This document shows, piece after piece, positions 10,830-63,737 of a stretch of 64,000 nt of DNA; positions within the stretch are counted from its first letter, which is position 1; every line of letters begins with the position of its first letter. The stretch comes from a virus. Position numbers and translations under genes: made by a program. The notes under the pieces are model-generated. The model was not told the DNA's origin. It saw only the letters and a program-made list of their open reading frames with translations, and searched no databases. Where the stretch lies: IMG/VR virus record IMGVR_UViG_3300034061_002899. The stretch is one strand, 5' to 3'.

Positions 10830-10905
10830 TGGAGCGGGATAAGAGGCTCGAACTCTCGACCTATACCTTGGCAAGGTATCGCTCTACCAACTGAGCTAAT
10901 CCCGC
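10830..10905 (-). tRNA. tRNA-Gly(GCC)
   Basis: Cloverleaf, anticodon loop TT-GCC-AA, encoded CCA. Confidence 0.95.
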
Positions 10906-10907
10906 AT

Positions 10908-11057
10908 TTAACTTGGTATCATTTTTGGCATATAAGGAACTGCTCTAGGTCCATGACGTTGTTGTAATAGCATACGTGCTTCTTCAGCATTGTTTGCTCC
11001 TACTCTGTCTGTGAACTCTTTACCGTTCACTCTTACTGTTGCTTCAAATAATTTCAT
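10908..11057 (-). CDS. small hypothetical protein
   Basis: MKLFEATVRVNG... lies between tRNA-Val and tRNA-Gly. Confidence 0.5.
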   Translation of the reverse strand: MKLFEATVRVNGKEFTDRVGANNAEEARMLLQQRHGPRAVPYMPKMIPS

Positions 11058-11063
11058 AATGAT

Positions 11064-11139
11064 TGGTGGGTCGTGACAGGCTCGAACTGCCGACATTCTG
11101 CGTGTAAGGCAGACGCTCTACCAACTGAGCTAACGACCC
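11064..11139 (-). tRNA. tRNA-Val(TAC)
   Basis: Cloverleaf, CT-TAC-AC, CCA. Confidence 0.95.
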
Positions 11140-11149
11140 TTTATTTTAT

Positions 11150-11335
11150 TTAACCACCTTGTTCACTGTCTTTAACATTTCCCCAATCAATGACTGGCTT
11201 TTCTACATTCATGTCAGGGAGAGGAGGAGGAACGTATCGTTCTTTTGGTGGCTTCTTACCGAATATAGCATCATGCTTATCGGCTAATTCCTCTAAACTT
11301 ATACTAAATGGTCTTGGTCTACTACCTTTACTCAT
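11150..11335 (-). CDS. small hypothetical protein
   Basis: MSKGSRPRPFS...; AAGGAA SD. Confidence 0.6.
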   Translation of the reverse strand: MSKGSRPRPFSISLEELADKHDAIFGKKPPKERYVPPPLPDMNVEKPVIDWGNVKDSEQGG

Positions 11336-11357
11336 TTGATTTCCTTTAAATTAAACT

Positions 11358-11434
11358 TGGTCGGAGTACAAGGATTCGAACCTTGGACCCCCTGGTCCCA
11401 AACCAGGTGCGCTACCAGACTGCGCCACACTCCG
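11358..11434 (-). tRNA. tRNA-Pro(TGG)
   Basis: Cloverleaf, TT-TGG-GA, CCA. Confidence 0.95.
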
Positions 11435-11461
11435 AATTATTTATAGCCCGATGTTATCGAA

Positions 11462-12097
11462 TCACTTTTTCCACAAGTGACTCACATCATCAGGCATTTT
11501 GTATTCATTTCGATATTGCAATATAGTAATATCATCATACTGATCTTTACCATTCCAAGGTGCACCTAATGCTAATGTAACCTTACATTCATCTGATGTG
11601 TTAATCATCCCGTGAGGGAAGCCACCATCCATTACAAATGCATGTTCTATATCAGGAGCAGATACTTTTCCTTTATCAGTAATCCAGTATAGTGTACTAG
11701 TATTACCTTGCAAAACAATTCTTATCTTATGTTGTAACGTGTTCAACTCATGGGGACTACAATCAATATGTTCGTTGTTTGCCCCACCTGGTTTTGTTAT
11801 CAACGCCATTACTCTAGCTTTACAGCCTATCCAGGGAAAAATATAATCTTCAAACCAATCAACGATTACTGCAGGAGTATGACTAACCCAACAAAAGTCA
11901 CCCGGTTGATTATTACTAGTTCCGTCGACACCTATCCCGCCTTTAGTGTTTAAAGGAAACATTTGTGTATGTCTATAGTTGTCCCAAAAACTTAACTTAC
12001 TATCAAGTGCTAAAATTTCTTTGGAGGCTTTTTTCTTATCTAAGATGGGTATACCATCTATTCTAGCAAACAACAAATTATCGGCTGGTTTAATCAT
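11462..12097 (-). CDS. 2OG-Fe(II)/Asp-Asn beta-hydroxylase-like protein
   Basis: HID...PHG facial-triad-like motif. Confidence 0.55.
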   Translation of the reverse strand: MIKPADNLLFARIDGIPILDKKKASKEILALDSKLSFWDNYRHTQMFPLNTKGGIGVDGTSNNQPGDFCWVSHTPAVIVDWFEDYIFPWIGCKARVMALITKPGGANNEHIDCSPHELNTLQHKIRIVLQGNTSTLYWITDKGKVSAPDIEHAFVMDGGFPHGMINTSDECKVTLALGAPWNGKDQYDDITILQYRNEYKMPDDVSHLWKK

Positions 12098-12106
12098 ATA
12101 ATATAT

Positions 12107-12634
12107 TTATGTTAATAGAAACACTGGATCAATATCTGTAGCAACCGTCATACAGATTCTTGGAACTGTATTCATATTTGTATGCACTCTATGTGGTTCT
12201 TGAACCCTAATTACTGTAGGTCTAATGATTTCAACCTCTGCTACCTTAGTAGGTATTGAATTATCTTTCAATAAGTAATAAGGTATTCCATTCTGTTGAA
12301 AAAACATAGTATACTCACCACCTGAATAAAATTCAGTGCGTGAGCCTTCGCAATTCAAAATAGGAATATTGATTCGACATTGTGATTTAAGATTACTCTT
12401 ATAGTCAATATGAACTTTAGAATGTTCTTGTAGGAAGGTTACGTACAACGCAACTTTTTTTACCTTTAGATTATAGTCTGCAAACGCAGACAATATTTCA
12501 GGACAATATTCAAGGTAGTCCTTATCTAGTAAGGAGAACCCTACTCTCACCGATGAATGATGTTCAAGAAACTTTTTGGTCTTTTCTTGAATGACCTCAA
12601 AGTTTTGTATTTCAATCTGATTAAAATATTTCAT
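12107..12634 (-). CDS. 2OG-Fe(II) oxygenase-like protein
   Basis: HID...RINIPILNC...PHRV...R. Confidence 0.5.
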   Translation of the reverse strand: MKYFNQIEIQNFEVIQEKTKKFLEHHSSVRVGFSLLDKDYLEYCPEILSAFADYNLKVKKVALYVTFLQEHSKVHIDYKSNLKSQCRINIPILNCEGSRTEFYSGGEYTMFFQQNGIPYYLLKDNSIPTKVAEVEIIRPTVIRVQEPHRVHTNMNTVPRICMTVATDIDPVFLLT

Positions 12635-12637
12635 ATT

Positions 12638-12712
12638 TGGATGCGGGTGACAGATTCGAACTGCCGATGCACCTGGCTTATGAGACCGGTGTGGTGACCA
12701 ACCCTACCCGCG
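12638..12712 (-). tRNA. atypical tRNA-Met(CAT), initiator-like
   Basis: C1:A72 mismatch, CT-CAT-AA loop, TTCGAAT T-loop, CCA; shrunken D-arm. Confidence 0.75.
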
Positions 12713-12715
12713 TAA

Positions 12716-12784
12716 TTTATAAATGTATTTCTTTTTCACTTACAGAGCCAGTCTTATCAGCTGGGTATGAAACACATTTATAAA
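12716..12784 (-). ncRNA. small structured RNA candidate with 16-bp closing stem
   Basis: TTTATAAATGTGTTTC...GAAATACATTTATAAA (one G-U pair) with an inner CCAG/CTGG hairpin. Confidence 0.45.
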
Positions 12785-12786
12785 GT

Positions 12787-12975
12787 GAGACTGCTACTAC
12801 ACCACATAGCCCAGTCTCTGAGTTGTTACACTGTCCACTTCTTCAATCTAGACGGTTAGAAGTCCGCCTTTGTGATTTTTCAAGTCGCTTTAAACAAGCC
12901 TTGCAGTAGATCCAATGCACTGTGCTATTAAGGTATTAGCAATTACCTAACTCTATTACGCTGAGTTAACGCGGG
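12787..12975 (-). ncRNA. structured ncRNA candidate (GGACAG family, copy 1)
   Basis: Multiple hairpins; 3' half aligns with 17330-17524. Confidence 0.55.
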
Positions 12976-12980
12976 TTTAT

Positions 12981-13056
12981 TGGTGGAGGATACCGGGATC
13001 GAACCGATGACCTACTGGTTGCAAACCAGTCGCTCTCCCAACTGAGCTAATCCCCC
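12981..13056 (-). tRNA. tRNA-Ala(TGC)
   Basis: G3:U70 pair, TT-TGC-AA, CCA. Confidence 0.95.
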
Positions 13057-13443
13057 TCATCTCAGTAAGCCTCTACTTCCTCGTCCACTACCTTTATTCT
13101 TGGCAGCATATGATGCAGTTTGGCTATGACAGTTTGGACACAACAGCCTTACATTTTCAGGCATATTATTACCAGCATTGCCATCTATATGATCTAACTG
13201 TAATGCTAACGGCACATTGTTATGTATTCCGTTATTACTACAACAAGCACATTTATATCCTGTTAGTTTTGTGATAATCTTATTCAGTGTCCGTCTATCT
13301 TTTACCTCACCTAAGTAAAATTTAGGCATAGTTAAATCTTTAAAAGTAAAATCAGCCTGACATTGATTGTCGCAAAACTTATTTTTATTATTACGCTTTA
13401 CAGTGTTTTCTCTGTTACAGTGTAGGCAGTTAAATGTATTCAT
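13057..13443 (-). CDS. HNH endonuclease (free-standing, within tRNA array)
   Basis: CACC...LQLDHIDGNAGNN..ENVRLLCPNCHSQT. Confidence 0.9.
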   Translation of the reverse strand: MNTFNCLHCNRENTVKRNNKNKFCDNQCQADFTFKDLTMPKFYLGEVKDRRTLNKIITKLTGYKCACCSNNGIHNNVPLALQLDHIDGNAGNNMPENVRLLCPNCHSQTASYAAKNKGSGRGSRGLLR

Positions 13444-13522
13444 AGTATAATTCTTTGTAGTCCGTATACTATTTATGCAAACGCTCTACATTTTGATATT
13501 TACCTACACCCCCAATATTCTT

Positions 13523-13599
13523 TGGTGCCCTAGGAGAGACTCGAACTCTCAGTTTACGGCTTCTAAGACCGCTGTGTCTACCAATTTCACCACCAGGGC
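13523..13599 (-). tRNA. tRNA-Leu(TAG), short variable arm
   Basis: CT-TAG-AA, Leu-type D-loop, 77 nt, CCA. Confidence 0.9.
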
Positions 13600-13659
13600 A
13601 TTCATTTCAATACGTATTGTAACAGAGAACTATTTATCTGTCTACTGTTTTGGATAACT

Positions 13660-13733
13660 TGGAGCGGGGTAACAGAATCGAACTGTCCGCATCAGATTGG
13701 AAATCTGAGGTATTACCACTATACGAACCCCGC
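13660..13733 (-). tRNA. tRNA-Gly(TCC)
   Basis: TT-TCC-AA, CCA. Confidence 0.95.
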
Positions 13734-14501
13734 TTATATATATTTTCTTTCACTTAACCAGGGCACAATAACCTCATCAACAAATTCTTTATGCATCTCT
13801 GTTGTGGGGTGATGTGGACCTGTAAGAATATTCCATTCTTCAGGATTAGACTCTGCGTATTTTGAATTTTTTGATATCCAATTATACTGACTAGTTATAG
13901 GAAGATACTGCTCTGTATCAATTTGTTTATATAAGTAATCTATTTCAGGATGTGTTATATTTTCAGGCAGAACAATATTATCGTCCATATAATTAGTAAA
14001 AAAATATTTAATATTTTTTGATTTTAGAAACCATTGTGTTTTCAATATATGCTCAATCGAATATATACTTGATCCTATTTCATCATGGAACATTTTATAA
14101 TATGTCATCGCTTCTTTATTATTTTCTGCCCAATTGGTATTAAGTATTACCCAATTTTTTGTACTATCTTTTACAAAACCAGTTGGATTTTCCATCCATC
14201 CATTATGTACTTTATCAGATACAAAATGTAATAAACCAGGTGATGTACATCTAAAGTCATGTCTATTAGAACCACTCCACATAACACCTACTAGTATATC
14301 TTCTGGTTTATGTGTCTTTAGTGCTTCTAGTACACCATATATTATACTTCTACTTATAAGTCCGTTACCCTGACTACCCATTGCATAACTCTTATGATCA
14401 TAGTCAGTTAATTCTTTAGATAAATGTATAGGCCACGCTTTATTTGCATAACTAATACATTCACTAAAACTACAACCTGAGGTGATTAATAATTTTTTCA
14501 T
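13734..14501 (-). CDS. SGNH-like protein
   Basis: SGCSFS, GN, VMWSG..R, C-terminal HP...H. Confidence 0.55.
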   Translation of the reverse strand: MKKLLITSGCSFSECISYANKAWPIHLSKELTDYDHKSYAMGSQGNGLISRSIIYGVLEALKTHKPEDILVGVMWSGSNRHDFRCTSPGLLHFVSDKVHNGWMENPTGFVKDSTKNWVILNTNWAENNKEAMTYYKMFHDEIGSSIYSIEHILKTQWFLKSKNIKYFFTNYMDDNIVLPENITHPEIDYLYKQIDTEQYLPITSQYNWISKNSKYAESNPEEWNILTGPHHPTTEMHKEFVDEVIVPWLSERKYI

Positions 14502-14511
14502 AAATATACTT

Positions 14512-14679
14512 ATGCACATTTACGATGCTATTACAAATTCCGGATTACACATCCATCTTTCAATGATGGAAGATGAATCCTTTTACATTATGGTACATGA
14601 TCTTGTGAACTTCACTATGCAAATGAAGTTCTTTAGTAGCGTTGAGCCTGCTAGAGCATTTATTCAATCACTAGAATAA
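14512..14679 (+). CDS. small hypothetical protein
   Basis: ATG shortly after a TAAATA box; divergent from the SGNH-like gene. Confidence 0.45.
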   Translation: MHIYDAITNSGLHIHLSMMEDESFYIMVHDLVNFTMQMKFFSSVEPARAFIQSLE

Positions 14680-14681
14680 TT

Positions 14682-14755
14682 TGGCATCCCCCCAAGGATT
14701 CGAACCTTGACTAACGGTTTTGGAGACCGGTATGCTGCCATTACATTAGGGAGAT
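14682..14755 (-). tRNA. tRNA-Trp(CCA)
   Basis: CT-CCA-AA, CCA; 5' end overlaps the upstream CDS. Confidence 0.9.
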
Positions 14756-15286
14756 ATTTAATTCTTTTAATTTGTCTAAGTAATGTGATTGACCTTTACT
14801 GACCATTGAACGCCAGTCATTTAGTGAATCATCATTGGCTCCGTCACTAACAAACTTGTAACATAGAAACTCTACTTTATGTTTCCTGCATACTTTCGCA
14901 ATAGCGTATGCTTCCATATCTACTACATCAGCAGGAATTAATAAGTTACTATCTGTGACAAAGTTATCACCTGTACTACAAGTTAATCCATCACCATTAT
15001 CAATGATGATAGTATCTTCAAATGGTGTTTGACCTGGTAGACTACCTAACTCACAGCACATCATATCACGTTGAATAAACTTTGACACTTGATGGAATCC
15101 TGACTTAACAGTAACTCCACCTGCTGTACCAAAGTTGATAACACGATCAGGGTTGTACTTGGCAATCAACTCAGCCGCAGTCATTGCGGCATTTACTTTT
15201 CCTACACCTGTGTAAAATACTTTCATACTGAAAGCCATGTCAGGTGCTTCTTCTTTCAATGCAATTAATATTAAATCTTTTTTCAT
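14741..15286 (-). CDS. mtnN: MTA/SAH nucleosidase-like (PNP/UDP family)
   Basis: GVGKVNAA, INFGTAGG, TGDNFV, VDMEAYAIA, KFVSD motifs. Confidence 0.8.
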   Translation of the reverse strand: MKKDLILIALKEEAPDMAFSMKVFYTGVGKVNAAMTAAELIAKYNPDRVINFGTAGGVTVKSGFHQVSKFIQRDMMCCELGSLPGQTPFEDTIIIDNGDGLTCSTGDNFVTDSNLLIPADVVDMEAYAIAKVCRKHKVEFLCYKFVSDGANDDSLNDWRSMVSKGQSHYLDKLKELNISLM

Positions 15287-15295
15287 AAATTCTCT

Positions 15296-15387
15296 TGGTG
15301 GAAACGGTGAGATTCGAACTCACGGGACGCATTAACATCCGACAGTTTTCAAGACTGTTGCAATAAACCGGGCTCTGCCACGCTTCC
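15296..15387 (-). tRNA. tRNA-Ser(TGA)
   Basis: Long variable arm, CT-TGA-AA, CCA. Confidence 0.95.
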
Positions 15388-15575
15388 TATTTTATTAGTA
15401 TATCTACGTTTTGACCTTTAGCGGCAGGTTCTATTTTTCCTGTATTGTCGTAAAGGTATTGTATGACTTCTAAAACTGTTTTATTTGTCTTAGGATCTAC
15501 TAGAGTACGATACTCGGTGTTGCGATATTGGTTATAAACCATATCCCAACTGTTTGTTATACTTTGTACTATCAT
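15387..15575 (-). CDS. small hypothetical protein
   Basis: 62 aa; ATAAATA box 5 nt before ATG. Confidence 0.5.
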   Translation of the reverse strand: MIVQSITNSWDMVYNQYRNTEYRTLVDPKTNKTVLEVIQYLYDNTGKIEPAAKGQNVDILIK

Positions 15576-15588
15576 ATAGTATTTATTA

Positions 15589-15683
15589 TACCATATAGAA
15601 ACACACTTTTAAACCTTTCTTCAGCGTTTAGTCGCTATCTCCCTTACTAATCGGGCGTAGGGTAAATGTGTTTTTATATGGTA
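15589..15683 (-). ncRNA. small structured RNA candidate with long closing stem
   Basis: TACCATATAAAAACACA...TGTGTTTCTATATGGTA with two inner hairpins. Confidence 0.45.
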
Positions 15684-15752
15684 GGAGTGTTCGGGAACGA
15701 TCCGAATTTTACCGGTTAAAAGCCGGTTACTTCACCTTAAAGTTTCACTCCC
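15679..15752 (-). tRNA. tRNA-Lys(TTT), atypical T-loop
   Basis: CT-TTT-AA; T-loop ATCGTTC; CCA. Confidence 0.85.
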
Positions 15753-15812
15753 ATAAGTCGTAATGATTGATTTTACGTGCCAATCATAGACCTACGGAAG
15801 TCTATGATGACA

Positions 15813-15833
15813 CTATCGCTTACTGCGTTTCAT
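15813..15833 (-). CDS. minigene MKRSKR*
   Basis: AAAGGAAACGAC-ATG AAA CGC AGT AAG CGA TAG followed by a long hairpin. Confidence 0.4.
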   Translation of the reverse strand: MKRSKR

Positions 15834-15856
15834 GTCGTTTCCTTTGTTAAAAAATT

Positions 15857-15932
15857 TGGAGTGGGTGACAGGGGTCGAACCTGCATGTCACGGATTTGCA
15901 ATCCGCTACCTAACCATTCAGTACACACCCAC
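15857..15932 (-). tRNA. tRNA-Cys(GCA)
   Basis: TT-GCA-AA, U73, CCA. Confidence 0.92.
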
Positions 15933-15937
15933 ATATT

Positions 15938-16138
15938 GCTCTGGCATCCCCCGGCGGTAATTATAGAGTATCAAGACATGACGCTATCATACCCATCACA
16001 CACTCCTTCCACCCGCTTCCCGAAACAGGGACCGTTCTCGCATTGCCAGCGGCCTTTGGGTTTAAAGACTACCACCCGTAGCTGTCACGCTACTTCTCAT
16101 CCTGTGGGTCACAGTATCCGGAGACACCCGGAACGTTC
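15938..16138 (-). ncRNA. GC-rich structured ncRNA candidate
   Basis: Hairpins TCCGG/CCGGA, CTGTG/CACAG, GTAGC/GCTAC, TCCC/GGGA, GAGTGT/ATACTC; much more GC-rich than flanks. Confidence 0.5.
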
Positions 16139-16153
16139 TTTTATAAATACAGT

Positions 16154-16336
16154 ATGGATATCCAAGACTGCATTGATATAGTTGAAAAGTTGTTGCGTCA
16201 AAACAACCGTAATTATAAGGATAGCCACGAACAATTATTATATGAACGAGGTTACCTTACTGGTATGCTTGCTCGGATGATGATTGAAAATCCTATGTTT
16301 CGCAATGAAATCATAGACCGAGCAAAAAAGAAATGA
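16154..16336 (+). CDS. small hypothetical protein
   Basis: Exact TATAAATA at 16142-16149, 4 nt before ATG. Confidence 0.55.
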   Translation: MDIQDCIDIVEKLLRQNNRNYKDSHEQLLYERGYLTGMLARMMIENPMFRNEIIDRAKKK

Positions 16337-16337
16337 T

Positions 16338-16425
16338 TGGTGGAGAGTGTGGGATTCGAACCCACGCACCCATTGCTGGATGACAGATTAGCAATCTGTT
16401 GGTTTAACCACTCACCCAACTCTCC
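16338..16425 (-). tRNA. tRNA-Ser(GCT)
   Basis: Long variable arm, TT-GCT-AA, CCA. Confidence 0.95.
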
Positions 16426-16431
16426 TATACA

Positions 16432-16508
16432 TGGTGCCTCCGACAGGACTCGAACCTGTAACCAATGGATTATGAGTCCACTGCTCTAACCAATTGAGCT
16501 ACCGAGGC
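16432..16508 (-). tRNA. tRNA-CAT (Ile2 or Met)
   Basis: CT-CAT-AA, CCA; identity ambiguous. Confidence 0.85.
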
Positions 16509-16515
16509 GCTATTT

Positions 16516-16920
16516 TTAATTATTTCTTAAAACTTGTTCTCGCCTTTCTTTGACGATTTCATTTCTTTTACTAACATCTTTTATTTTTTGTATATCCAAA
16601 CAATCTCTAATACAATCGTCAGGTAATGCCATATTTTTTCTAACAAGTTTAGCAACTTCTAATTCATTTGGTAATAACCCGCGAAGGCCGTTAAAGGGTC
16701 TTTTCCACATTCCGTTATCTACTGCATGACAGGTTATACATGTATGATCGGGCATTGAAGGTCGCATGTCTCTAGCTAAATGATTACCTGTTAACTTAGA
16801 GCATACATAGTTATCTGTTACTGTGGGGTATTCTATACCACAACTATTAGTTGAGATTGGTTTTAATGTTGAACACCCGGTAAGTAAAAGAAACATTAAT
16901 ACTAAGCCTATTTTTTTCAT
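16516..16920 (-). CDS. lipoprotein with CxxCH motif
   Basis: Lipobox LTGC; CITCH. Confidence 0.55.
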   Translation of the reverse strand: MKKIGLVLMFLLLTGCSTLKPISTNSCGIEYPTVTDNYVCSKLTGNHLARDMRPSMPDHTCITCHAVDNGMWKRPFNGLRGLLPNELEVAKLVRKNMALPDDCIRDCLDIQKIKDVSKRNEIVKERREQVLRNN

Positions 16921-16956
16921 GTATCACCCTTTATATGGACAGAGAACTTAAAAATT

Positions 16957-17042
16957 TGGTGCGACTGGCCGGAATCGAACCGGCACGCTGTTACGGCGAG
17001 AGATTTTAAGTCTCTTGTGTCTACCTATTTCACCACAGTCGC
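16957..17042 (-). tRNA. tRNA-Leu(TAA)
   Basis: CT-TAA-AA, long variable arm, CCA. Confidence 0.95.
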
Positions 17043-17055
17043 AAATCTTGTTATC

Positions 17056-17084
17056 ATTATATATCATACAATGATTGTAGTCAA
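17056..17084 (-). promoter_or_regulatory. sigma70-type promoter
   Basis: TTGACT-17 nt-TATAAT just upstream of tRNA-Leu. Confidence 0.7.
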
Positions 17085-17090
17085 ATATTA

Positions 17091-17167
17091 TGGCGCACCG
17101 TAGGGGACTCGAACCCCTGGCCTCATGCGTGACAGGCATGCGATCTAACCAACTGATCTAACGGTGC
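17091..17167 (-). tRNA. tRNA-Asp(GTC)
   Basis: CT-GTC-AC, G73, CCA. Confidence 0.95.
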
Positions 17168-17239
17168 AAAATCTGTGATAGTTTCTATACAACCCATTGA
17201 AACTAACAAACATTGAGTATATTGCTACACTATTTGTCT

Positions 17240-17323
17240 TGGTGGAGACGGTTGGAGTTGAACCAACAGTGCCGAAGCGGAAGATTTACAGTCTCCTGGG
17301 GTTACCAATTTTCCTACATCTCC
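17240..17323 (-). tRNA. tRNA-Tyr(GTA)
   Basis: CT-GTA-AA, variable arm, CCA. Confidence 0.93.
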
Positions 17324-17329
17324 AAAATT

Positions 17330-17524
17330 AGTATAAGCTACTTGTTTCCACACAAGCCCTTAATTGAGCGGTTACTCTGTCCATCTCATTTATTCAAAGT
17401 CTGTGTGCAGTGAGAATCTGCCTATCAGAGCCTGCGAGGGTATTTTTAATCCTCACGCTAACGGTTTTCTGCCACCGGATCTCTATCATTAATCAAACGC
17501 TATTTTAACGAAAATAGTAACGGG
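17330..17524 (-). ncRNA. structured ncRNA candidate (GGACAG family, copy 2)
   Basis: AGGCAG..stem..TGGACAGAGTAACCGCTCA..GGGCTTG..CAAGTAGC aligns with copy 1. Confidence 0.55.
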
Positions 17525-17528
17525 ATAC

Positions 17529-17604
17529 TGGAGCTCGGTACGGGATTCGAACCCGTGTGAATGCCGTGAAAGGGCACTATCCTAGGCCACTAGATGAACC
17601 GAGC
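17529..17604 (-). tRNA. tRNA-Glu(TTC)
   Basis: CT-TTC-AC, CCA. Confidence 0.93.
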
Positions 17605-17608
17605 ATTA

Positions 17609-17736
17609 TGTTATTAGTTTTGCTGACGCACTATTTGCTATGTCTCAACGGAATTGGTGGCCACACTACCGTTTATCGTCATAGTTACGTAGGGTTGACG
17701 TTTACCCAAGGGCTTACATCAGCAAAACTAATAACA
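17609..17736 (-). ncRNA. structured RNA candidate with perfect 18-bp closing stem
   Basis: TGTTATTAGTTTTGCTGA...TCAGCAAAACTAATAACA with nested helices. Confidence 0.5.
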
Positions 17737-17738
17737 CA

Positions 17739-17951
17739 CTATATGAAAACACACTATGGGAACTACTAAACAAATAGTCAGTACCGTCTACTGATTCAAT
17801 GTCATTCGTCATTACTGCCTAACTGCCCGTCACGTTCGTAACTTTCGTTATCATACGCTTCTTGTACTCTATGCGAAGCCAGTCCGTCAACTGGTTATGC
17901 TTCCATAGAGTACCTAACGGATCAGGTAACCCTTAATATGTTTACATATAG
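17739..17951 (-). ncRNA. structured RNA candidate with long closing stem and possible pseudoknot
   Basis: CTATATGTAAACATATTA...TAGTGTGTTTTCATATAG; loop TCCGTT is complementary to loop GACGGA. Confidence 0.5.
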
Positions 17952-18037
17952 AGCCCTGAACTTAACAGGGATATATGAATTCTAAATTTTAAAGAACTTT
18001 GTTGAAATGTCTGATGACTTTCTCAACTCATGCTATG

Positions 18038-18066
18038 ATTGTATCATAACTTCCATTTGTTGTCAA
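18038..18066 (-). promoter_or_regulatory. sigma70-type promoter
   Basis: TTGACA-17 nt-TACAAT with extended -10 TG. Confidence 0.75.
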
Positions 18067-18119
18067 ATTCTTTTTTGTGTCTCTGTTTCCAAGAACTTGT
18101 TCAATCAATCTATAACTAG

Positions 18120-18148
18120 AGTATAGCACTAAACTGATTTATTGTCAA
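18120..18148 (-). promoter_or_regulatory. sigma70-type promoter
   Basis: TTGACA-17 nt-TATACT with extended -10 TG. Confidence 0.8.
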
Positions 18149-18152
18149 ATTT

Positions 18153-18227
18153 TGGTCCGGGGTACAGGAATCGAACCTGTATTGACTGCTTAGAAGGCAG
18201 CTGTATTATCCATTATACTAACCCCAG
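18153..18227 (-). tRNA. tRNA-Arg(TCT)
   Basis: CT-TCT-AA, A20, CCA. Confidence 0.93.
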
Positions 18228-18248
18228 ATAAATGTCTAACTTGCCTCT

Positions 18249-18277
18249 ATTATAGCAGAGAATTGATTTATTGTCAA
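18249..18277 (-). promoter_or_regulatory. sigma70-type promoter
   Basis: TTGACA-17 nt-TATAAT with extended -10 TG. Confidence 0.85.
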
Positions 18278-18298
18278 GTGTGACAATAACTATTTGAT

Positions 18299-18374
18299 TG
18301 GCTCCCCGACCTGGGCTCGAACCAGGGACCTACGGATTAACAGTCCGGTGCTCTACCAACTGAGCTATCGAGGA
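18299..18374 (-). tRNA. tRNA-Asn(GTT)
   Basis: CT-GTT-AA, G73, CCA. Confidence 0.95.
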
Positions 18375-18379
18375 ATATT

Positions 18380-18454
18380 TGGTGCCCCAGGTTAGAATCG
18401 AACTAACTACCTACCGCTTACAAGGCGGGTGCTCTACCAGTGAGCTACAAGGGC
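18380..18454 (-). tRNA. tRNA-Thr(TGT)
   Basis: CT-TGT-AA, CCA. Confidence 0.93.
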
Positions 18455-18484
18455 TTTTGTCTTACGACTTGTTTATTTAACAGT

Positions 18485-18513
18485 ATTGTATCATAGGAAA
18501 ACTTTTTTGTCAA
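18485..18513 (-). promoter_or_regulatory. sigma70-type promoter
   Basis: TTGACA-17 nt-TACAAT. Confidence 0.75.
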
Positions 18514-18514
18514 C

Positions 18515-19075
18515 CTATGATAATAATATTCTACTGTGTTTGGGAACACCGGCAAGCAAGTATTCCATTTGGTCTGCAAGAATAGTTCTATGTTGTAATA
18601 TCATATTCTCGTAATGATTAGGTACGTAAGGTGCATAAATTAATTCCATACGTGCTTCTTTCAATGTCTTGTGACCTTTCTTGCTGTTACAATCTTTACA
18701 AGCTGTAACAACGTTCATCCAGGTGTTCTCACCACCTTTACTCTTTGGATGAATATGATCTCTACTTAGTAAGTGAAAGTTAGGAAAGTGTTCACCGCAG
18801 TAAGCGCATACATGTCTATCACGACCAAATAATGTTTTGTTAGTTAGTGCTACACAAGAATGTTTGTATGGGTTGAATCCGTGTCCTTTGATAGCAATAA
18901 TACTAGTAGCTTCCAAGTAACTTAATGTACCGTCTTTTTGTATGCCACCACGATATTTAGCCACAATTTCCCCCATTGACCATGCTATGGCATCTTTTGC
19001 TTTATAGGTAATTGCGTCATCATTTGAGATCCACTGCCGGGGAACTCCTGAGATATCTAGTGCTAGAACAGCCAT
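18515..19075 (-). CDS. HNH endonuclease
   Basis: LFGRDRHVCAYCG...SRDHIHPKSKGG.NTWMNVVTACKDCN; AAGGAG SD before ATG 19075. Confidence 0.85.
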   Translation of the reverse strand: MAVLALDISGVPRQWISNDDAITYKAKDAIAWSMGEIVAKYRGGIQKDGTLSYLEATSIIAIKGHGFNPYKHSCVALTNKTLFGRDRHVCAYCGEHFPNFHLLSRDHIHPKSKGGENTWMNVVTACKDCNSKKGHKTLKEARMELIYAPYVPNHYENMILQHRTILADQMEYLLAGVPKHSRILLS

Positions 19076-19123
19076 GTAAAACTCCTTTTCTGCTATTGTC
19101 ACTAATTGTATTTAATGCCGTAT

Positions 19124-19198
19124 TGGCGGGTCCTGCAGGAATCGAACCCACATCCCGAAGTTCGAAGCATCGTATTCTATCCATTGAACTAAGGACCC
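19124..19198 (-). tRNA. tRNA-Arg(TCG)
   Basis: CT-TCG-AA, CCA. Confidence 0.88.
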
Positions 19199-19200
19199 AT

Positions 19201-19276
19201 TGGTACCAAGAGTTGGACTCGAACCAACCACACCTAGTGCTTCAAACTAGTGCTCTACCTGATGAGCTATCTTGGC
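19201..19276 (-). tRNA. tRNA-Phe(GAA)
   Basis: TT-GAA-GC, CCA. Confidence 0.92.
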
Positions 19277-19280
19277 TTAT

Positions 19281-19441
19281 AAAGGTGGGAGCCTAACTAT
19301 CTTATTGTTAGTAAGCCTCGCTAGATTGTCTCGTATAGGCAAGTTTATACACCCATCAATCATACTATAGTGTCATCACAGTTAACCCCACGGTGACTAG
19401 ATTGGCAGGGACTCGAACCTATCGTCTATCCCATAAACTTT
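19281..19441 (-). ncRNA. structured RNA candidate containing a T-arm-like motif
   Basis: AGGTTCGAGTCCCTGCCA inside an AAGTTTAT...ATAAACTT closing stem; no complete cloverleaf. Confidence 0.4.
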
Positions 19442-19449
19442 GAAAATTA

Positions 19450-20118
19450 TTATTTACTTTTATAAGGCAACGTACACCACATGATTACAGCAGTTTTCGA
19501 TTCTATGCCATTTTTAAGATAGTTATCGCTACAGTGCCATTTATATCGGCTGGCTGCCAACAATGAACCGGTCTTCCATGGGAAAACGGTTTCAATTGAT
19601 AAGTATCTCATTTTTTCTCTCAACTCATATGAAAGGTATTTTTCATATGTTTCGTCATCTATAGAATCAATGGGGTCTGCTTTTTGAATGTATTCGTCAA
19701 TATTTTTACTAGTGGTATACCATTCATTAAAAATGACAGTATTAGAATCTACTGTTTCTAATGGAATAACAACTGTATATGCACCATAGTGGTCATCATC
19801 TATTCCATATTCCCCATATATACCATCTATATGTGTTCGGTATGGAGTATATGATTCTAATATATGCATCCCACCTATAACTAAATCAGCTCCAAATTCT
19901 TTATGCATTTTTTCTCTTAATAACAAATCAGAATTTTTCATCGACGGATTATCTAATATTGACGTAATTTTACATTCTAATTCATTTTCGGAATATGTTT
20001 CAGATATAGCGTTTGGATCTACGGTAATAGCTTCAAGTAAAATAGATTCAACCTCTGTATTAGATAAAAAATTATCTATAACTCTAGTATCAACAATGGG
20101 TGGGTTAAGATTAATCAT
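19450..20118 (-). CDS. 2OG-Fe(II) oxygenase-like protein
   Basis: HID...VVIPL...WKTGSL...WH.S; TATAAATA box upstream. Confidence 0.5.
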   Translation of the reverse strand: MINLNPPIVDTRVIDNFLSNTEVESILLEAITVDPNAISETYSENELECKITSILDNPSMKNSDLLLREKMHKEFGADLVIGGMHILESYTPYRTHIDGIYGEYGIDDDHYGAYTVVIPLETVDSNTVIFNEWYTTSKNIDEYIQKADPIDSIDDETYEKYLSYELREKMRYLSIETVFPWKTGSLLAASRYKWHCSDNYLKNGIESKTAVIMWCTLPYKSK

Positions 20119-20141
20119 AATATAACTATTTATATAATGTT

Positions 20142-20219
20142 TGGCACCCCCTCAAGGATTCGAACCTCGGTGTGTCGGAATCAAAATCCGATGCCTTAGA
20201 CCAACTTGGCGAAGGGGGT
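20142..20219 (-). tRNA. tRNA-Gln(TTG)
   Basis: TT-TTG-AT, G73, CCA. Confidence 0.93.
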
Positions 20220-20228
20220 ATTTTATCT

Positions 20229-20318
20229 TTAATAAAGAGACTCCTTGTACACATTACATAAATGTGTCCATGCTTCAATTTCTTGTTTATGCTTTTCTAC
20301 TGATTGATTCCAACTCAT
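20229..20318 (-). CDS. 29-aa small ORF
   Basis: AAGGAG-ACTCAA-ATG; MSWNQSVEKHKQEIEAWTHLCNVYKESLY*. Confidence 0.5.
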   Translation of the reverse strand: MSWNQSVEKHKQEIEAWTHLCNVYKESLY

Positions 20319-20336
20319 TTGAGTCTCCTTAAAATT

Positions 20337-20411
20337 TGGTACCGCCACCTGGACTTGAACCAGGGACCTACGCCTTATCAAGGCGGTGCTCTACCACTGA
20401 GCTATAGCGGT
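20337..20411 (-). tRNA. tRNA-Ile(GAT)
   Basis: TT-GAT-AA, CCA. Confidence 0.93.
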
Positions 20412-20415
20412 GAAT

Positions 20416-20490
20416 TGGTGGATGTAAGTAGATTTGAACTACTGACCTGCTCCGTATGAAGGAGATGCACTACCGCTGTGCTATACATCC
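20416..20490 (-). tRNA. tRNA-Met(CAT), elongator-like
   Basis: TT-CAT-AC, paired 1:72, CCA. Confidence 0.88.
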
Positions 20491-20491
20491 A

Positions 20492-20568
20492 TGGGGTGCT
20501 TGATGGGATTCGAACCCACGTATATCGGAATCACAATCCGAGGTCTTAACCGCTTGACGACAAGCACC
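20492..20568 (-). tRNA. tRNA-His(GTG)
   Basis: G-1:C73, TT-GTG-AT, CCA. Confidence 0.95.
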
Positions 20569-20575
20569 ATACTAT

Positions 20576-20652
20576 TGGTACGACCTAAGAGAGTTGAACT
20601 CCTGACCCCCAAGTTCGTAGCCTGGTGCTCTATCCATCTGAGCTAAGGTCGC
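20576..20652 (-). tRNA. tRNA-Arg(ACG)
   Basis: CT-ACG-AA, A20, CCA. Confidence 0.95.
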
Positions 20653-20724
20653 ATTCTAAAACATACTATGGCTTAACCTTTCAGGGGTCAGGGTACTGTT
20701 TACCCATAGTATGTTTTAGAATGC
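20651..20724 (-). ncRNA. small structured RNA candidate with perfect 21-bp closing stem
   Basis: GCATTCTAAAACATACTATGG...CCATAGTATGTTTTAGAATGC around two hairpins. Confidence 0.5.
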
Positions 20725-20870
20725 CGTGTATTTCTACACGACATGATAGGGTCGATACCCTATCCAGTAGTCTTACTTTTTGTGTTACCGCCACAAATTT
20801 CATGTGTACTGTCCGCCCATTCTATACATTTTGCGCTGTATTACGGCTCTCGTTGCCTATTCACGCTGTC
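20725..20870 (-). ncRNA. structured ncRNA candidate (possible GGACAG family, copy 3)
   Basis: ATAGGCAA...GGGCGGACAG followed by hairpins. Confidence 0.4.
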
Positions 20871-20871
20871 A

Positions 20872-21039
20872 TCAATCAGTATAAGTTAGTTGGTTAACTT
20901 TCTTAGTAGCCTCTTGATAGACTTTAGCACGTTCAAGTTTATTTTCTATCAACCGTGCTACTTGCTCCTTAGTCAAAACATGATTGCTAAACCAATCTGT
21001 CTTGTCTTTAGAAGTTGTGTATTCTATCTGTTCATCCAT
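20872..21039 (-). CDS. 55-aa hypothetical protein, first ORF after the terminator
   Basis: MDEQIEYTTSKDKTDWFSNHVLTKEQVARLIENKLERAKVYQEATKKVNQLTYTD*. Confidence 0.45.
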   Translation of the reverse strand: MDEQIEYTTSKDKTDWFSNHVLTKEQVARLIENKLERAKVYQEATKKVNQLTYTD

Positions 21040-21049
21040 TTATTGTCAA
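21021..21049 (-). promoter_or_regulatory. sigma70-type promoter
   Basis: TTGACA-17 nt-TAGAAT. Confidence 0.65.
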
Positions 21050-21343: not shown

Positions 21344-21372
21344 AGTATAGCATAGCTAGGAATTGATGTCAA
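21344..21372 (-). promoter_or_regulatory. sigma70-type promoter upstream of the leader ORF
   Basis: TTGACA-17 nt-TATACT with extended -10 TG. Confidence 0.8.
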
Positions 21373-62540: not shown

Positions 62541-63737
62541 TCACTGAAAAGTTAAATTTTGGACCGCAATTTCACCAACGTAATCGGCTGCGTTACCGAA
62601 AGATGACGCAGTATTAGTAAGCTCTATGTACCCGTAACGAGTCATAAATGATACGACTGGCTCGAATGTTGATGGATCTAGAACAACTCCACTGCTCATC
62701 AATGGGATGTATGGGCAATAGAATGCTGCCGCGTCAGTCTCACTAGAACCTTTGTAACCAACCAATACTGGCTGAGTGTCAGGAGCGTAAGAGTTAACGA
62801 ATACACGCATTGCACCGTTCAATGTACCAACGAACTTAGTGTTAGTTGGAGCTTCGAAAGTACCTTCTGTTGTACGAGCAAAAGCTGAAGTAGTTGCAGA
62901 TTGCAATACTGTCAATGATGCTGGAGAAACAACAGCCCAGTTACCTGCGCCACGACGTGTACGTTGGGCGATCAAGTTAGCAACACGATTGATCAAAACT
63001 GCCAATGCGGCATGCTCGTCACCAACGTATGTAGCTGTACCAGATACAGTAGCTTGGTTAAATGTGTACTCAGTTGTAGCTAAAGTAGCTAAAGACAATA
63101 GAATCTCTTGGTCGATCTCAGCAGTAATTTCTTGTGCTAGAGCGGCCATGATTTCTGCCTCAACGTCAATACCATGTTGGCTTTGAGCGTCTTGGGCAGC
63201 TTCGAATGTCCAGCGAGCTTGTAACTTACGTGACTTAGCTTCAACAGCTTGACGCAAGATTTGTACGCTGATTTGTTTACCGCCATTGCCTTCTAAAGAA
63301 GCAGTGTCAGCACCAGTGTAGAAGTTAGTTGATGTATCATCTTTAGCTGTGCGTGAATATGCTTGTGCAATTAAGAACGGGCTTAATGCTTCTTGACCAG
63401 CAGTAACGCTTGTTTGAGCGGCACTGTTGTCTGTCAAGTTGTTTGCATAACGTACACGTAAAGTGTGAATTTGACCAACTGGTCCTGTCATTGGCTGAAC
63501 ACCAACCAACTCGTTAGCGATAACTGTTGGCATGACACGACGGATAACTGGAAGAATCACACGGTTTAATGTAGCGATGTTGCCAGATGTTGTAGTACCA
63601 GCTGAAGATTCAGCCAATAACTGCTTTTTGGTGTTTTCTAAAATAACACCCATAGTTGAGCGGCGAGTGCCCTTTAAGCCTTCTAACAGAGCTTCTTTGG
63701 TCTCGTCCCAACGGCTTTCTAATAGAACTTTTGACAT
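62541..63737 (-). CDS. T4-like major capsid protein (gp23 family)
   Basis: GVQPMTGPVGQI, AKSRKLQARWT.EAAQD, FYCPYIPL, FMTRYG. Confidence 0.95.
   Translation of the reverse strand: MSKVLLESRWDETKEALLEGLKGTRRSTMGVILENTKKQLLAESSAGTTTSGNIATLNRVILPVIRRVMPTVIANELVGVQPMTGPVGQIHTLRVRYANNLTDNSAAQTSVTAGQEALSPFLIAQAYSRTAKDDTSTNFYTGADTASLEGNGGKQISVQILRQAVEAKSRKLQARWTFEAAQDAQSQHGIDVEAEIMAALAQEITAEIDQEILLSLATLATTEYTFNQATVSGTATYVGDEHAALAVLINRVANLIAQRTRRGAGNWAVVSPASLTVLQSATTSAFARTTEGTFEAPTNTKFVGTLNGAMRVFVNSYAPDTQPVLVGYKGSSETDAAAFYCPYIPLMSSGVVLDPSTFEPVVSFMTRYGYIELTNTASSFGNAADYVGEIAVQNLTFQ

Follow-up and report, generated by a model that had tools for sequence, protein, structure and literature searches.

The DNA analyzed here is a 64,000-nt stretch from a viral genome record (IMG/VR IMGVR_UViG_3300034061_002899), hereafter termed the window, which belongs to a lake jumbo phage with a Gp23-type capsid protein. 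It holds 26 tRNAs and two elements on the minus strand, which are shown here to be paralogous genes (type 1 and type 2) of one conserved, structured non-coding RNA family with a length of 188-209 nt. A preliminary description had already placed two repeated copies here, right after tRNA CCA ends, and both statements are confirmed: copy 1 begins 3 nt after the CCA end of tRNA-Ala (12981), while copy 2 begins 2 nt after the CCA end of tRNA-Glu (17529) and ends 7 nt before tRNA-Tyr, which starts at 17323. The tRNA-tRNA gaps within the array (1-8 nt) are of the same size as these linkers. The open reading frames of the array comprise HNH nucleases, a PNP_UDP-type phosphorylase and unknowns, none of them informative on the element. 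The parts of both copies are given below, where R1 denotes a covariance model built from type-1 relatives alone, with copy 2 outside the seed alignment and copy 1 scored by a model from other members.

12785..12977, minus strand: copy 1 (type 1), whole element, 193 nt; R1 match over the full length, 134.8 bits
12974..12976, minus strand: pseudoknot E, 5' strand ACC; partner GGU within the 3' hairpin loop (12801-12803)
12948..12973, minus strand: pseudoknot A, stem 1 CGC/GCG and stem 2 UAACUC/GAGUUA; both-sided changes at all pairs
12923..12947, minus strand: hairpin H3, GGUA/UACC; its loop UGCUA and the downstream UAGCA form pseudoknot B
12904..12922, minus strand: hairpin H4, CAGU/ACUG; 93-95% paired
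12870-12880, minus strand: AUC(A)CAA, forming pseudoknot D with the H4 loop UUGGAU; 6/6 pairs change on both sides
12881..12903, minus strand: hairpin H5, outer stem CAAG/CUUG, inner stem GCUU/AAGC, 2-nt bulge; both-sided changes at 8/8 pairs
12837..12869, minus strand: pseudoknot C, stem 1 AGGCGG/CCGUCU and stem 2 ACUUCU/AGAAGU; supported by covariation and swap test
12819..12836, minus strand: invariant junction GGAC, hairpin H7 (AGUG[UAAC]AACU) with a covarying pair, junction CA
12787..12818, minus strand: 3' hairpin H6, outer stem GAGACUG/CAGUCUC; 97.6-98.4% of cells paired
17331..17526, minus strand: copy 2 (type 2), whole element, 196 nt; R1 match over the full length, 60.6 bits, E 1.3e-15
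17384..17422, minus strand: pseudoknot C of copy 2, GCAG/CUGC and UCUCA/UGAGA; covariation inside type 2
17365..17383, minus strand: conserved motif UGGACAGAGUAACCGCUCA of copy 2 (junction and H7); one of two occurrences in the window
17333..17364, minus strand: 3' hairpin H6 of copy 2, loop UGUGGAAA; loop GGA pairs with the 5' UCC at 17523-17525

The kinship of the two copies lies beyond chance, because R1 recovers the unseeded copy 2 and the next-best score anywhere in the window is far lower (7.8 bits). Furthermore, the window contains the common motif TGGACAGNGTAACNNCTCA at just two places, 12819-12837 and 17365-17383. A third copy had been suspected at 20725-20870; this was not borne out, as R1 with filters off gave no match there and its nearest signal was a 3.3-bit scrap at 20685-20705.

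The family is large and, so far, occurs only in uncultured phages. At least 117 distinct full-length members were recovered from IMG/VR phage contigs with the covariance model, and at least 120 pattern matches were obtained in IMG/VR, with flanks common to nearly all. Among 185,579 prokaryote genomes there was only one true match, located on a 3-kb contig that was probably mis-binned. Neither copy gave a blastn match against 50,697 records of cultured phages, where a wider query matched by its tRNA alone, and no member was found in T4 and the nearest capsid relatives among cultured phages. Many genomes carry the family as two diverged paralogues, as the window does; two are not obligatory, since a 99%-complete relative showed a single copy.

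Five interactions of the pseudoknot type make up the fold of the RNA, together with three plain hairpins and a three-way junction that is invariant (UGGAC / AG-N-G[UAAC]N-N'-CU / CA). From 5' to 3', pseudoknot A is followed by hairpin H3 with pseudoknot B and by hairpin H4, whose loop reaches across hairpin H5 to the next junction as pseudoknot D; then come pseudoknot C, the three-way junction, which carries a hairpin of 4 bp with a UAAC tetraloop, and the long 3' hairpin. In pseudoknot E, the loop of this last hairpin base-pairs with the 5'-most nucleotides, and both ends of the RNA are thereby tied together. In copy 1, the outer stem of H6 is followed by an internal loop (GG/UAG), an inner stem and the loop UGUGGUG, and across the family H6 shows up to 6 pair types per position. 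Around 20 unpaired or junction nucleotides are invariant, and position 1 of the element is almost always A. The pairings noted in the preliminary description are confirmed, with covariation throughout the family: stem 2 of pseudoknot C is represented by ACTTCT/AGAAGT and ATTCTCA/TGAGAT, the outer 3' hairpin by AGACTG/CAGTCT and TTAAG/CTTA, and the inner 3' hairpin by GGCTA/TAG and GGCTTG/CAAG. The common 3' architecture described there likewise stands, whereas it had been missed that the noted "stems" belong to H-type pseudoknots and that the 5' ~100 nt are structurally conserved too.

This fold is supported by covariation far above shuffled and slid controls, in line with the initial proposal of a structured non-coding RNA with conserved junctions and covarying stems. 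In the MAFFT alignment, 78.8% were paired vs 65.8% after shuffling (score 0.398 vs 0.183), and in the model-based alignment 81.2% of cells vs 65.0% (score 0.348 vs 0.145); in both cases 0/500 shuffles scored as high, and slid controls of the model-based alignment reached 0.04-0.09. In an alignment-free partner-swap test, each pseudoknot strand fitted its own partner better than the partners of other members, e.g., 14.65 vs 10.20 for stem 2 of pseudoknot A, 12.04 vs 8.42 for pseudoknot D and 11.75 vs 7.74 for H3/pseudoknot B, which comprises 27 distinct helix sequences, while control regions were flat. Pseudoknot E covaries in a type-specific manner (ACC:GGU in type 1 vs UCC:GGA in type 2), and divergent members have longer complements of their own, e.g., CCCUGU/ACAGGG or CCUCGU/ACGAGG. 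Type 2 variants of pseudoknot C include UCUCU/AGAGA, UCCCU/AGGGA and AUCUUU/AAAGAU, and the variable pair of H7 is distributed as A.G 75, G.A 19, U-A 5, A-U 4, C-G 2 and G-C 1 (mutual information 0.69). Single-sequence MFE folds of the two copies are unremarkable (z-scores -1.39 and -0.02), which is no evidence against structure, because MFE folding cannot represent pseudoknots. No open reading frame runs through the element, as every frame contains ~3-5 stops.

The RNA family is absent from the Rfam catalogue. Searches with the 4227 models of Rfam 15 returned only tRNAs for the whole window at gathering scores, and no match on the elements in 11 kb at E<=5 or in seven related loci at E<=1; a search with 206 nt alone at E<=10 gave zero matches. 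Novelty is judged here against Rfam 15; a separate catalogue lists 10,006 viral candidate RNAs (PMC10690425).

Several pairings and known RNAs suggested by short strings were tried and rejected. A group I intron with its P3-P7 pseudoknot core, prompted by CUCAGAGACU...CAGUCU in copy 1, was rejected on strand order and the lack of a model match; the same search (Intron_gpI) found a real group I intron in a related locus (L075) and none on the elements. The likeness of CUCAGAGACU to the group I R element is confined to copy 1. RNase P RNA, prompted by ACAGA...GCUYA, was rejected because the variable positions pair locally as H7 and no Rfam RNase P model matched; the CR-V-like string ACAGNGUAAC..CUCA likewise pairs locally as H7, unlike the long-range P4 helix that joins CR-I and CR-V in RNase P RNA, and gave no signal when tested as a partner of the 5' region. 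Pairing of GUAAC with a 5' GUUAC gave no signal (own partner 10.42 vs swapped 10.29). Pairing of the H6 loop UGGUG with the tRNA 3' CACCA was discarded as well, since the loop covaries with the element's own 5' end; divergent H6 loops without UGG are also at odds with it.

Across the family, the element is invariably encoded on the same strand as the tRNAs, in a slot of tRNA-like spacing. Upstream tRNAs encode CCA in 58/58 cases and are joined to the element by a linker of 0-5 nt without conserved sequence, downstream tRNAs begin 3-8 nt past it, and type 1 often directly precedes an initiator-like tRNA-Met. On a given side, about half of the members lack a tRNA at a distance of up to 40 nt, so that tRNA processing cannot define every end. 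The only gene repeatedly found beside the element is a 190-aa ORF, which ends 1-4 nt upstream in ~17/21 loci carrying it, has only weak sub-threshold Pfam and no PHROG matches, and is absent from the window. The partner-protein search around the family loci found no partner.

Judged from sequence and position, we tentatively favor a reading that is quite possible rather than probable, namely that the element could be a stable RNA excised from the tRNA transcript by tRNA-processing enzymes and then acting in trans. Since no promoter-like site was found directly upstream of copy 1 or copy 2 and no minus-strand terminator-like site within the window array, the element would be transcribed within the tRNA polycistron. 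Its 3' end might then be set by the RNase P cut at the next tRNA and its 5' end by cleavage either within the short, A-rich linker or at the element's own 5' edge. With the 5' end buried in a helix junction and the 3' end in a hairpin, the RNA could accumulate in a nuclease-resistant form and act via the invariant junction and the tetraloop on a putative partner in tRNA or translation metabolism. Precedents for such an excised RNA are T4 rnaC and rnaD, located directly after a tRNA in a tRNA cluster, and GOLLD and ROOL as pseudoknotted phage RNAs near tRNA islands. An invariant single-stranded junction and a buried 5' end would, however, equally suit a catalytic core.

An alternative option, which we regard as somewhat unlikely, is a cis-acting ribozyme that would cut at or just before its own 5' end and, with no need of host 3'-processing endonucleases, release the tRNA (or mRNA) upstream of it with a trailer of 0-5 nt. 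The strand order of the element (E, A, B, D, C, H7, H6) puts the 5' end at the junction of two coaxially stackable pseudoknot helices, with E on the inner H6 stem, and HDV-like and glmS ribozymes cleave at such a two-helix pseudoknot junction. The ~20 invariant nucleotides, the very short, constrained distance to the encoded CCA and the nearly constant A at position 1 are also consistent with cleavage. The closest precedent for phage tRNA 3'-trailer ribozymes are the theta (HDV-like) ribozymes of gut phages, structured RNAs directly 3' of phage tRNAs that were proposed to process the trailer independently of host 3'-processing endonucleases (PMC10879173). However, theta ribozymes have a minimal HDV-like fold and only 4.5% of their linked tRNAs encode CCA (PMC10879173), in contrast to the ~200 nt of the element and the CCA encoded in all its upstream tRNAs. 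Moreover, neither the nested HDV-like P1-P2-P3-P1.1-P4 double pseudoknot with its catalytic C nor its strand order is found in the element, no Rfam self-cleaving family, HDV-like ones included, matches, and the length far exceeds that of every small self-cleaver but glmS. The linker is variable in length and unconserved, and the tRNA would end up with a 2',3'-cyclic phosphate in need of healing. Rather doubtful, and likewise drawn from sequence, is a new class of large catalytic RNA that would cut the tRNA polycistron at its own 5' edge, by self-cleavage or RNase P-like hydrolysis; if true, jumbo phages would mature tRNA 3' ends without host enzymes, and the two paralogues would serve different array positions.

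The element might also act as mere processing "punctuation" without a function in trans, i.e., as a rigid spacer presenting a nuclease site beside the tRNA 3' end, preventing misfolding of adjacent tRNAs or blocking exonucleases. The tRNA-like spacing on both sides fits this idea, and compact pseudoknots would presumably resist exonucleases. We nevertheless consider it improbable: a simple hairpin or an extra tRNA would suffice, most tRNAs of the same array lack an element, and the 5' end, as far as strand order tells, enters mid helix stack, unlike an RNase P minihelix substrate. Instead, a specific active surface is suggested by the five covarying pseudoknots and the invariant junction nucleotides, which diverged types have retained.

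A riboswitch-like or tRNA-sensing element controlling read-through into downstream tRNAs or genes would agree with the aptamer-level complexity of the fold and with the frequent position of type 1 before initiator-like tRNA-Met. It is very unlikely, as terminator-like hairpins with a U-run are absent both after the two copies and from the minus strand of the array, and no covarying alternative pairing was found, including that of the 3' tail CACUUU, tried as a competitor for pseudoknot A. Furthermore, an expression platform would not fit into the 3-8 nt between the element and the next tRNA. A tmRNA relative or accessory in ribosome rescue is most improbable of all: the serial H-type pseudoknots resemble the tmRNA ring PK1-PK4 and two related arrays (L059 and L041) carry a permuted tmRNA as well as the element, but the element lacks a tRNA-like domain with alanine acceptor and a tag reading frame and has no match by ARAGORN or Rfam tmRNA models, and R1 does not match the real tmRNAs with which it coexists.

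Phage tRNA clusters carrying extra stable RNAs of unknown purpose have been known for 50 years, with T4 species 1/2 and, later, GOLLD and ROOL. In its best reading, the element is of the same kind as T4 species 1/2 (rnaC, rnaD), GOLLD and ROOL, yet unrelated to them. Like the element, the T4 species are small RNAs whose genes immediately follow a tRNA and share its strand within a tRNA cluster; they are stable RNAs of unknown function in a T4-type phage, and the window phage has the Gp23-type capsid. However, R1 finds nothing in T4 68000-75000 and the family motif is missing from rnaC and rnaD, which are 119 and 139 nt long with no pseudoknot chain seen, unlike the ~200-nt element; judged by its sequence, rnaC has a T-arm/acceptor-like 3' stretch, whereas the family has no T-loop. 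GOLLD and ROOL share with the element a high degree of pseudoknotting and an occurrence in phages or prophages, often near tRNA islands, and have no known protein partner or function (PMC12286853). With about 580 to over 800 nt they are 3-4x as long, their Rfam models do not match the element, and they form homo-oligomeric cages; two diverged paralogues per genome, as in many carriers of the family, further set it apart.

The family adds a compact member of ~200 nt with five pseudoknot-type interactions to the RNAs of tRNA arrays, and stands out by its unusually clean covariation, its invariant junction and its very regular position relative to tRNA ends. As this size suits chemical probing, cryo-EM and cleavage assays, the role of tRNA-array RNAs could become directly testable. 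A catalytic element would represent a new class of ribozyme as well as a novel way of making tRNA 3' ends; a non-catalytic one would still be a new, clearly defined fold that marks a clade of lake jumbo phages known only from uncultured material.

Two copies of the element, a structured RNA whose types 1 and 2 are diverged paralogues, lie within the tRNA array of the window, which spans 10830 to 20652 and holds, according to ARAGORN, 26 tRNA genes, each on the minus strand:

12785-12977, minus strand: copy 1 (type 1), within the tRNA array, downstream of a tRNA-Ala ending at 12981
17331-17526, minus strand: copy 2 (type 2), flanked by a tRNA-Glu ending at 17529 and a tRNA-Tyr starting at 17323

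The motif string TGGACAGNGTAACNNCTCA, which spans a junction and hairpin H7, is present exactly twice in the window, at 12819-12837 and 17365-17383. When R1, the covariance model of the family, was run on the window with filters off, copy 1 scored 134.8 bits and copy 2, although outside the seed, was matched over its full length with 60.6 bits (E 1.3e-15); the third-ranked match reached only 7.8 bits. These are the two copies proposed in the preliminary description, which had also suggested a diverged third one at 20725-20870. Since R1 with filters off finds nothing there, this stretch is not a member, and with that exception the original interpretation is supported. Minimum-energy folding, which is blind to pseudoknots, was unremarkable for the two copies (z = -1.39 and -0.02), and Rfam at gathering scores returned tRNAs and nothing further from the whole 64 kb.

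Scanning the collections with a motif pattern of 16 specified bases, and running R1 on the retrieved loci, revealed many relatives. At least 120 IMG/VR contigs match the pattern, and among the matches listed the flanks of all but one or two share the architecture first read from the two copies, i.e., conserved junctions and stems that vary in sequence between members and keep their pairing. R1, the kind of model that had been suggested as a check, was seeded with A2, an alignment of 57 non-redundant type-1 members, and comprises 205 positions and 38 pairs. It matches at least 130 times across the retrieved loci, at least 117 of these matches being distinct and full length, and the exact motif is missing from some of them. 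Two copies, mostly one of each type, occur in at least nine loci, the window included; a 345-kb relative, 99% complete, carries one copy only, of type 2. The element is non-coding, and motif-anchored frames average about 3–5 stops, with almost none open.

The fold is composed of the following parts, in 5' to 3' order:

Pseudoknot E: ACC (type 1) or UCC (type 2) among the first nucleotides, paired with GGU or GGA in the 3'-terminal hairpin loop
Pseudoknot A: stem 1 of 3-5 bp, stem 2 of 6-7 bp
H3 and pseudoknot B: H3 loop pairs with the following 4-6 nt; reduced in type 2
H4 and pseudoknot D: H4 loop pairs, over H5, with the junction preceding pseudoknot C
H5: two-part hairpin with a 2-nt bulge
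Pseudoknot C: the part noticed in the preliminary description
UGGAC: invariant, between pseudoknot C and H7
H7: short hairpin
CA: invariant, between H7 and H6
H6: outer stem of 4-7 bp, conserved GG/UAG internal loop, inner stem of about 5 pairs including G·U

H7 was detected by mutual information, as the two variable motif positions covary (MI 0.69; A.G 75, G.A 19, U-A 5, A-U 4, C-G 2, G-C 1), and ACAG-N-G[UAAC]N-N'-CUCA therefore forms a small hairpin closed by a UAAC tetraloop, a loop of a class mimicking GNRA loops. Pseudoknot C, H7 and H6 thus meet in a three-way junction whose strands are the invariant nucleotides.

Covariation supports this fold in both alignments. In A2, produced by MAFFT and not fitted to any structure, 78.8% of cells are paired (65.8% shuffled), the covariation score is 0.398 (0.183 shuffled; slid controls 0.07–0.15) and both-sided changes occur in 564 cells (227 shuffled). 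The corresponding values for the model-based A3 (99 distinct rows), which is biased towards its own model, are 81.2% (65.0%), 0.348 (0.145; slid controls 0.04–0.09) and 1001 cells (397). None of 500 shuffles scored as high in either case, shuffle statistics that are inflated by sequence kinship; this weakness does not extend to the slid controls or to the swap test. H6 is 98% paired, with up to 6 pair types at a single position. Since MAFFT shifts of short strands hurt column counts, the alignment-free swap test was added, in which the best helix between two strand regions of the same sequence is compared with that between regions from different sequences.

Swap test: score with own partner, then with swapped partner
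Pseudoknot A stem 2: 14.65, 10.20
Pseudoknot B stem 2: 11.75, 7.74
Pseudoknot D: 12.04, 8.42
Pseudoknot C stem 2: 11.05, 8.55
H6 outer stem: 14.70, 9.08
H6 inner stem: 11.56, 6.99
Control, motif against 5' region: 10.42, 10.29

Pseudoknot E is supported by the type-specific switch from ACC:GGU to UCC:GGA and by independent extensions in divergent members (CCCUGU/ACAGGG, UCCCA/UGGGA, AUCCC/GGGAU, CCUCGU/ACGAGG and CCUC/GAGG).

Among the IMG/VR matches listed, the flanking tRNAs called by ARAGORN all lie on the element's strand, the upstream one ending 133–172 nt before the motif and the downstream one starting 38–49 nt past it, which therefore defines a unit of about 190–208 nt. A tRNA lies within 40 nt upstream in 58 of the at least 117 distinct elements, and among the elements listed all 58 of these tRNAs end in an encoded CCA. 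The linker from there to model position 1 measures 0–5 nt in 55 of the 58 cases (mode 3 in type 1, 1 in type 2) and is A-rich; 90 of 96 sequences have A at position 1. On the downstream side, tRNAs (n = 44 among the elements listed) start 3–8 nt past the element, with one exception at 14 nt; these distances match the tRNA-tRNA gaps of 1–8 nt in the window's array. Synteny is conserved for type 2 (Glu or Tyr, element, Tyr or Asp), and type 1 is preceded by Thr, Ala, Leu and other tRNAs and frequently followed by an initiator-like tRNA-Met. In addition, a conserved ORF of about 190 aa ending in ...LQAEGL(L/I)* is found in at least 21 loci (e.g., L087, a related phage locus, 4994-5566, minus strand) and stops 1–4 nt upstream of the type-1 element in about 17 of the 21 listed. 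It gave no convincing Pfam match and no PHROG match, and no homologue was found in the window.

A consensus scan located sigma-70-like promoters within the array, none of them directly upstream of copy 1 or copy 2, and no minus-strand terminator-like site in the array; the elements are therefore most simply parts of tRNA transcripts.

Near-perfect sigma-70-type promoters on the tRNA (minus) strand
18249-18277
21344-21372
21021-21049
18485-18513
18120-18148
18038-18066

One array promoter, TTGACA-17-TATAAT with an extended-10 TG, matches 12/12, and together these sites suggest several entry points for host polymerase.

The array holds further features. HNH endonuclease genes lie amid the tRNAs at 13057-13443 and 18515-19102 (both minus strand), the former stopping directly before the tRNA-Ala that precedes copy 1; both probably encode free-standing homing endonucleases, as segB does among the tRNA genes of T4. 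At 20655-20900 (minus strand), three hairpins can be read by eye, including a perfect stem of about 17 bp (TCTAAAACATACTATGG / CCATAGTATGTTTTAGA) that ends just upstream of the first tRNA (tRNA-Arg, 20652) and might be a processing site. Downstream of copy 1, at 12640-12715 (minus strand), a tRNA-like gene with a CAU anticodon, called by neither ARAGORN nor Rfam, aligns with the initiator-like tRNA-Met (CGCGGGG...CCCCGCAACCA) that follows the relatives' type-1 elements. It has a shortened D-arm, an anticodon-stem insertion and the 3' end ...CAUCCA, and may have decayed or be non-canonical. About 70 nt (12716-12786, minus strand) separate it from copy 1, compared with a 7-nt linker (TAATTAC/TAATTAT) in relatives, and fold as a long hairpin with TATAAAT in both arms, which resembles the T4 late-promoter consensus TATAAATA.

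The affiliation of the window is indicated by its capsid gene:

62541-63737, minus strand: T4-type major capsid protein (Pfam Gp23, 329 bits)

Its best cultured matches, at about 65% identity, are the jumbo phages Pseudomonas phage PA5oct and Vibrio phage 2.275.O, in whose genomes R1 found no match, and a blastn search of 50,697 phage records with the two copies was likewise negative. Across 185,579 prokaryote species, each represented by one genome, the motif pattern matched 54 times with a single true R1 match, on a contig of 3 kb from the bin of an uncultured cyanobacterium; as this contig is short and the element is cut off at its end, it is probably phage DNA. It follows that the family is viral and, to date, uncultured. 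Many of the source samples carry numbers of 33000423xx-33000429xx, near that of a record entitled 'ME2018-...3300042940', which we read as a lake time series.

What we observe is a conserved, knotted, non-coding RNA occupying a tRNA slot. As to its function, we tentatively favour a stable RNA that would be excised along with the tRNAs and then act in trans. The 3' end would arise from RNase P cleavage at the following tRNA and the 5' end from a cut within the A-rich linker. Burial of the 5' end, together with the 3' hairpin, would confer protection, and the invariant junction and tetraloop would mediate the action in trans. The main rival, a cis-acting ribozyme cleaving at its own 5' edge, appears less likely, albeit with a structural argument on its side: given the strand order, the 5' nucleotide falls where two stackable pseudoknot helices meet, with invariant junction strands close by, and a 5' nucleotide between stackable helices is the geometry of ribozymes cleaving at their 5' end. 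However, the element's size, the lack of a family match, the variable linker length and the CCA encoded in the upstream tRNAs argue against it. Three readings are ranked lower. For a purely structural punctuation role, the RNA seems too elaborate. A sensor is unlikely because expression platform and terminator are absent, as is a tmRNA-like role because there is neither a tRNA-like domain nor a tag frame.

The Rfam comparison proposed at the outset left the element without a match in Rfam 15. Four types of search were run, one of them with just the 206-nt stretch at E<=10. In related loci, the same searches recovered permuted, two-piece tmRNA (tmRNA_permuted; L059 13-295, minus strand, 97.4 bits; L041 6826-7224, minus strand, 132.7 bits), which Rfam did not find in the window, as well as a group I intron in a tRNA array (RF00028; L075 6439-6638, plus strand, 57.5 bits against a gathering score of 50), showing that the method works on such loci. 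The classical precedent are T4 rnaC and rnaD, stable RNAs likewise encoded in a tRNA cluster, but they are unrelated in sequence and R1 has no match in the T4 tRNA region. GOLLD and ROOL are also pseudoknot-rich phage RNAs of tRNA islands with unknown function (PMC12286853), yet they are much larger and their models do not match the element. Theta ribozymes lie directly 3' of phage tRNAs as well, but have minimal HDV-like folds and adjoin tRNAs mostly without CCA (PMC10879173). From IMG/VR, 10,006 viral candidate RNAs have been catalogued without names (PMC10690425), and this family may be one of them. The finding is real and, judged against Rfam 15, represents a new RNA family of a known kind, the structured phage tRNA-array RNAs without known function; the tRNA arrays of these related phages collect structured RNAs.
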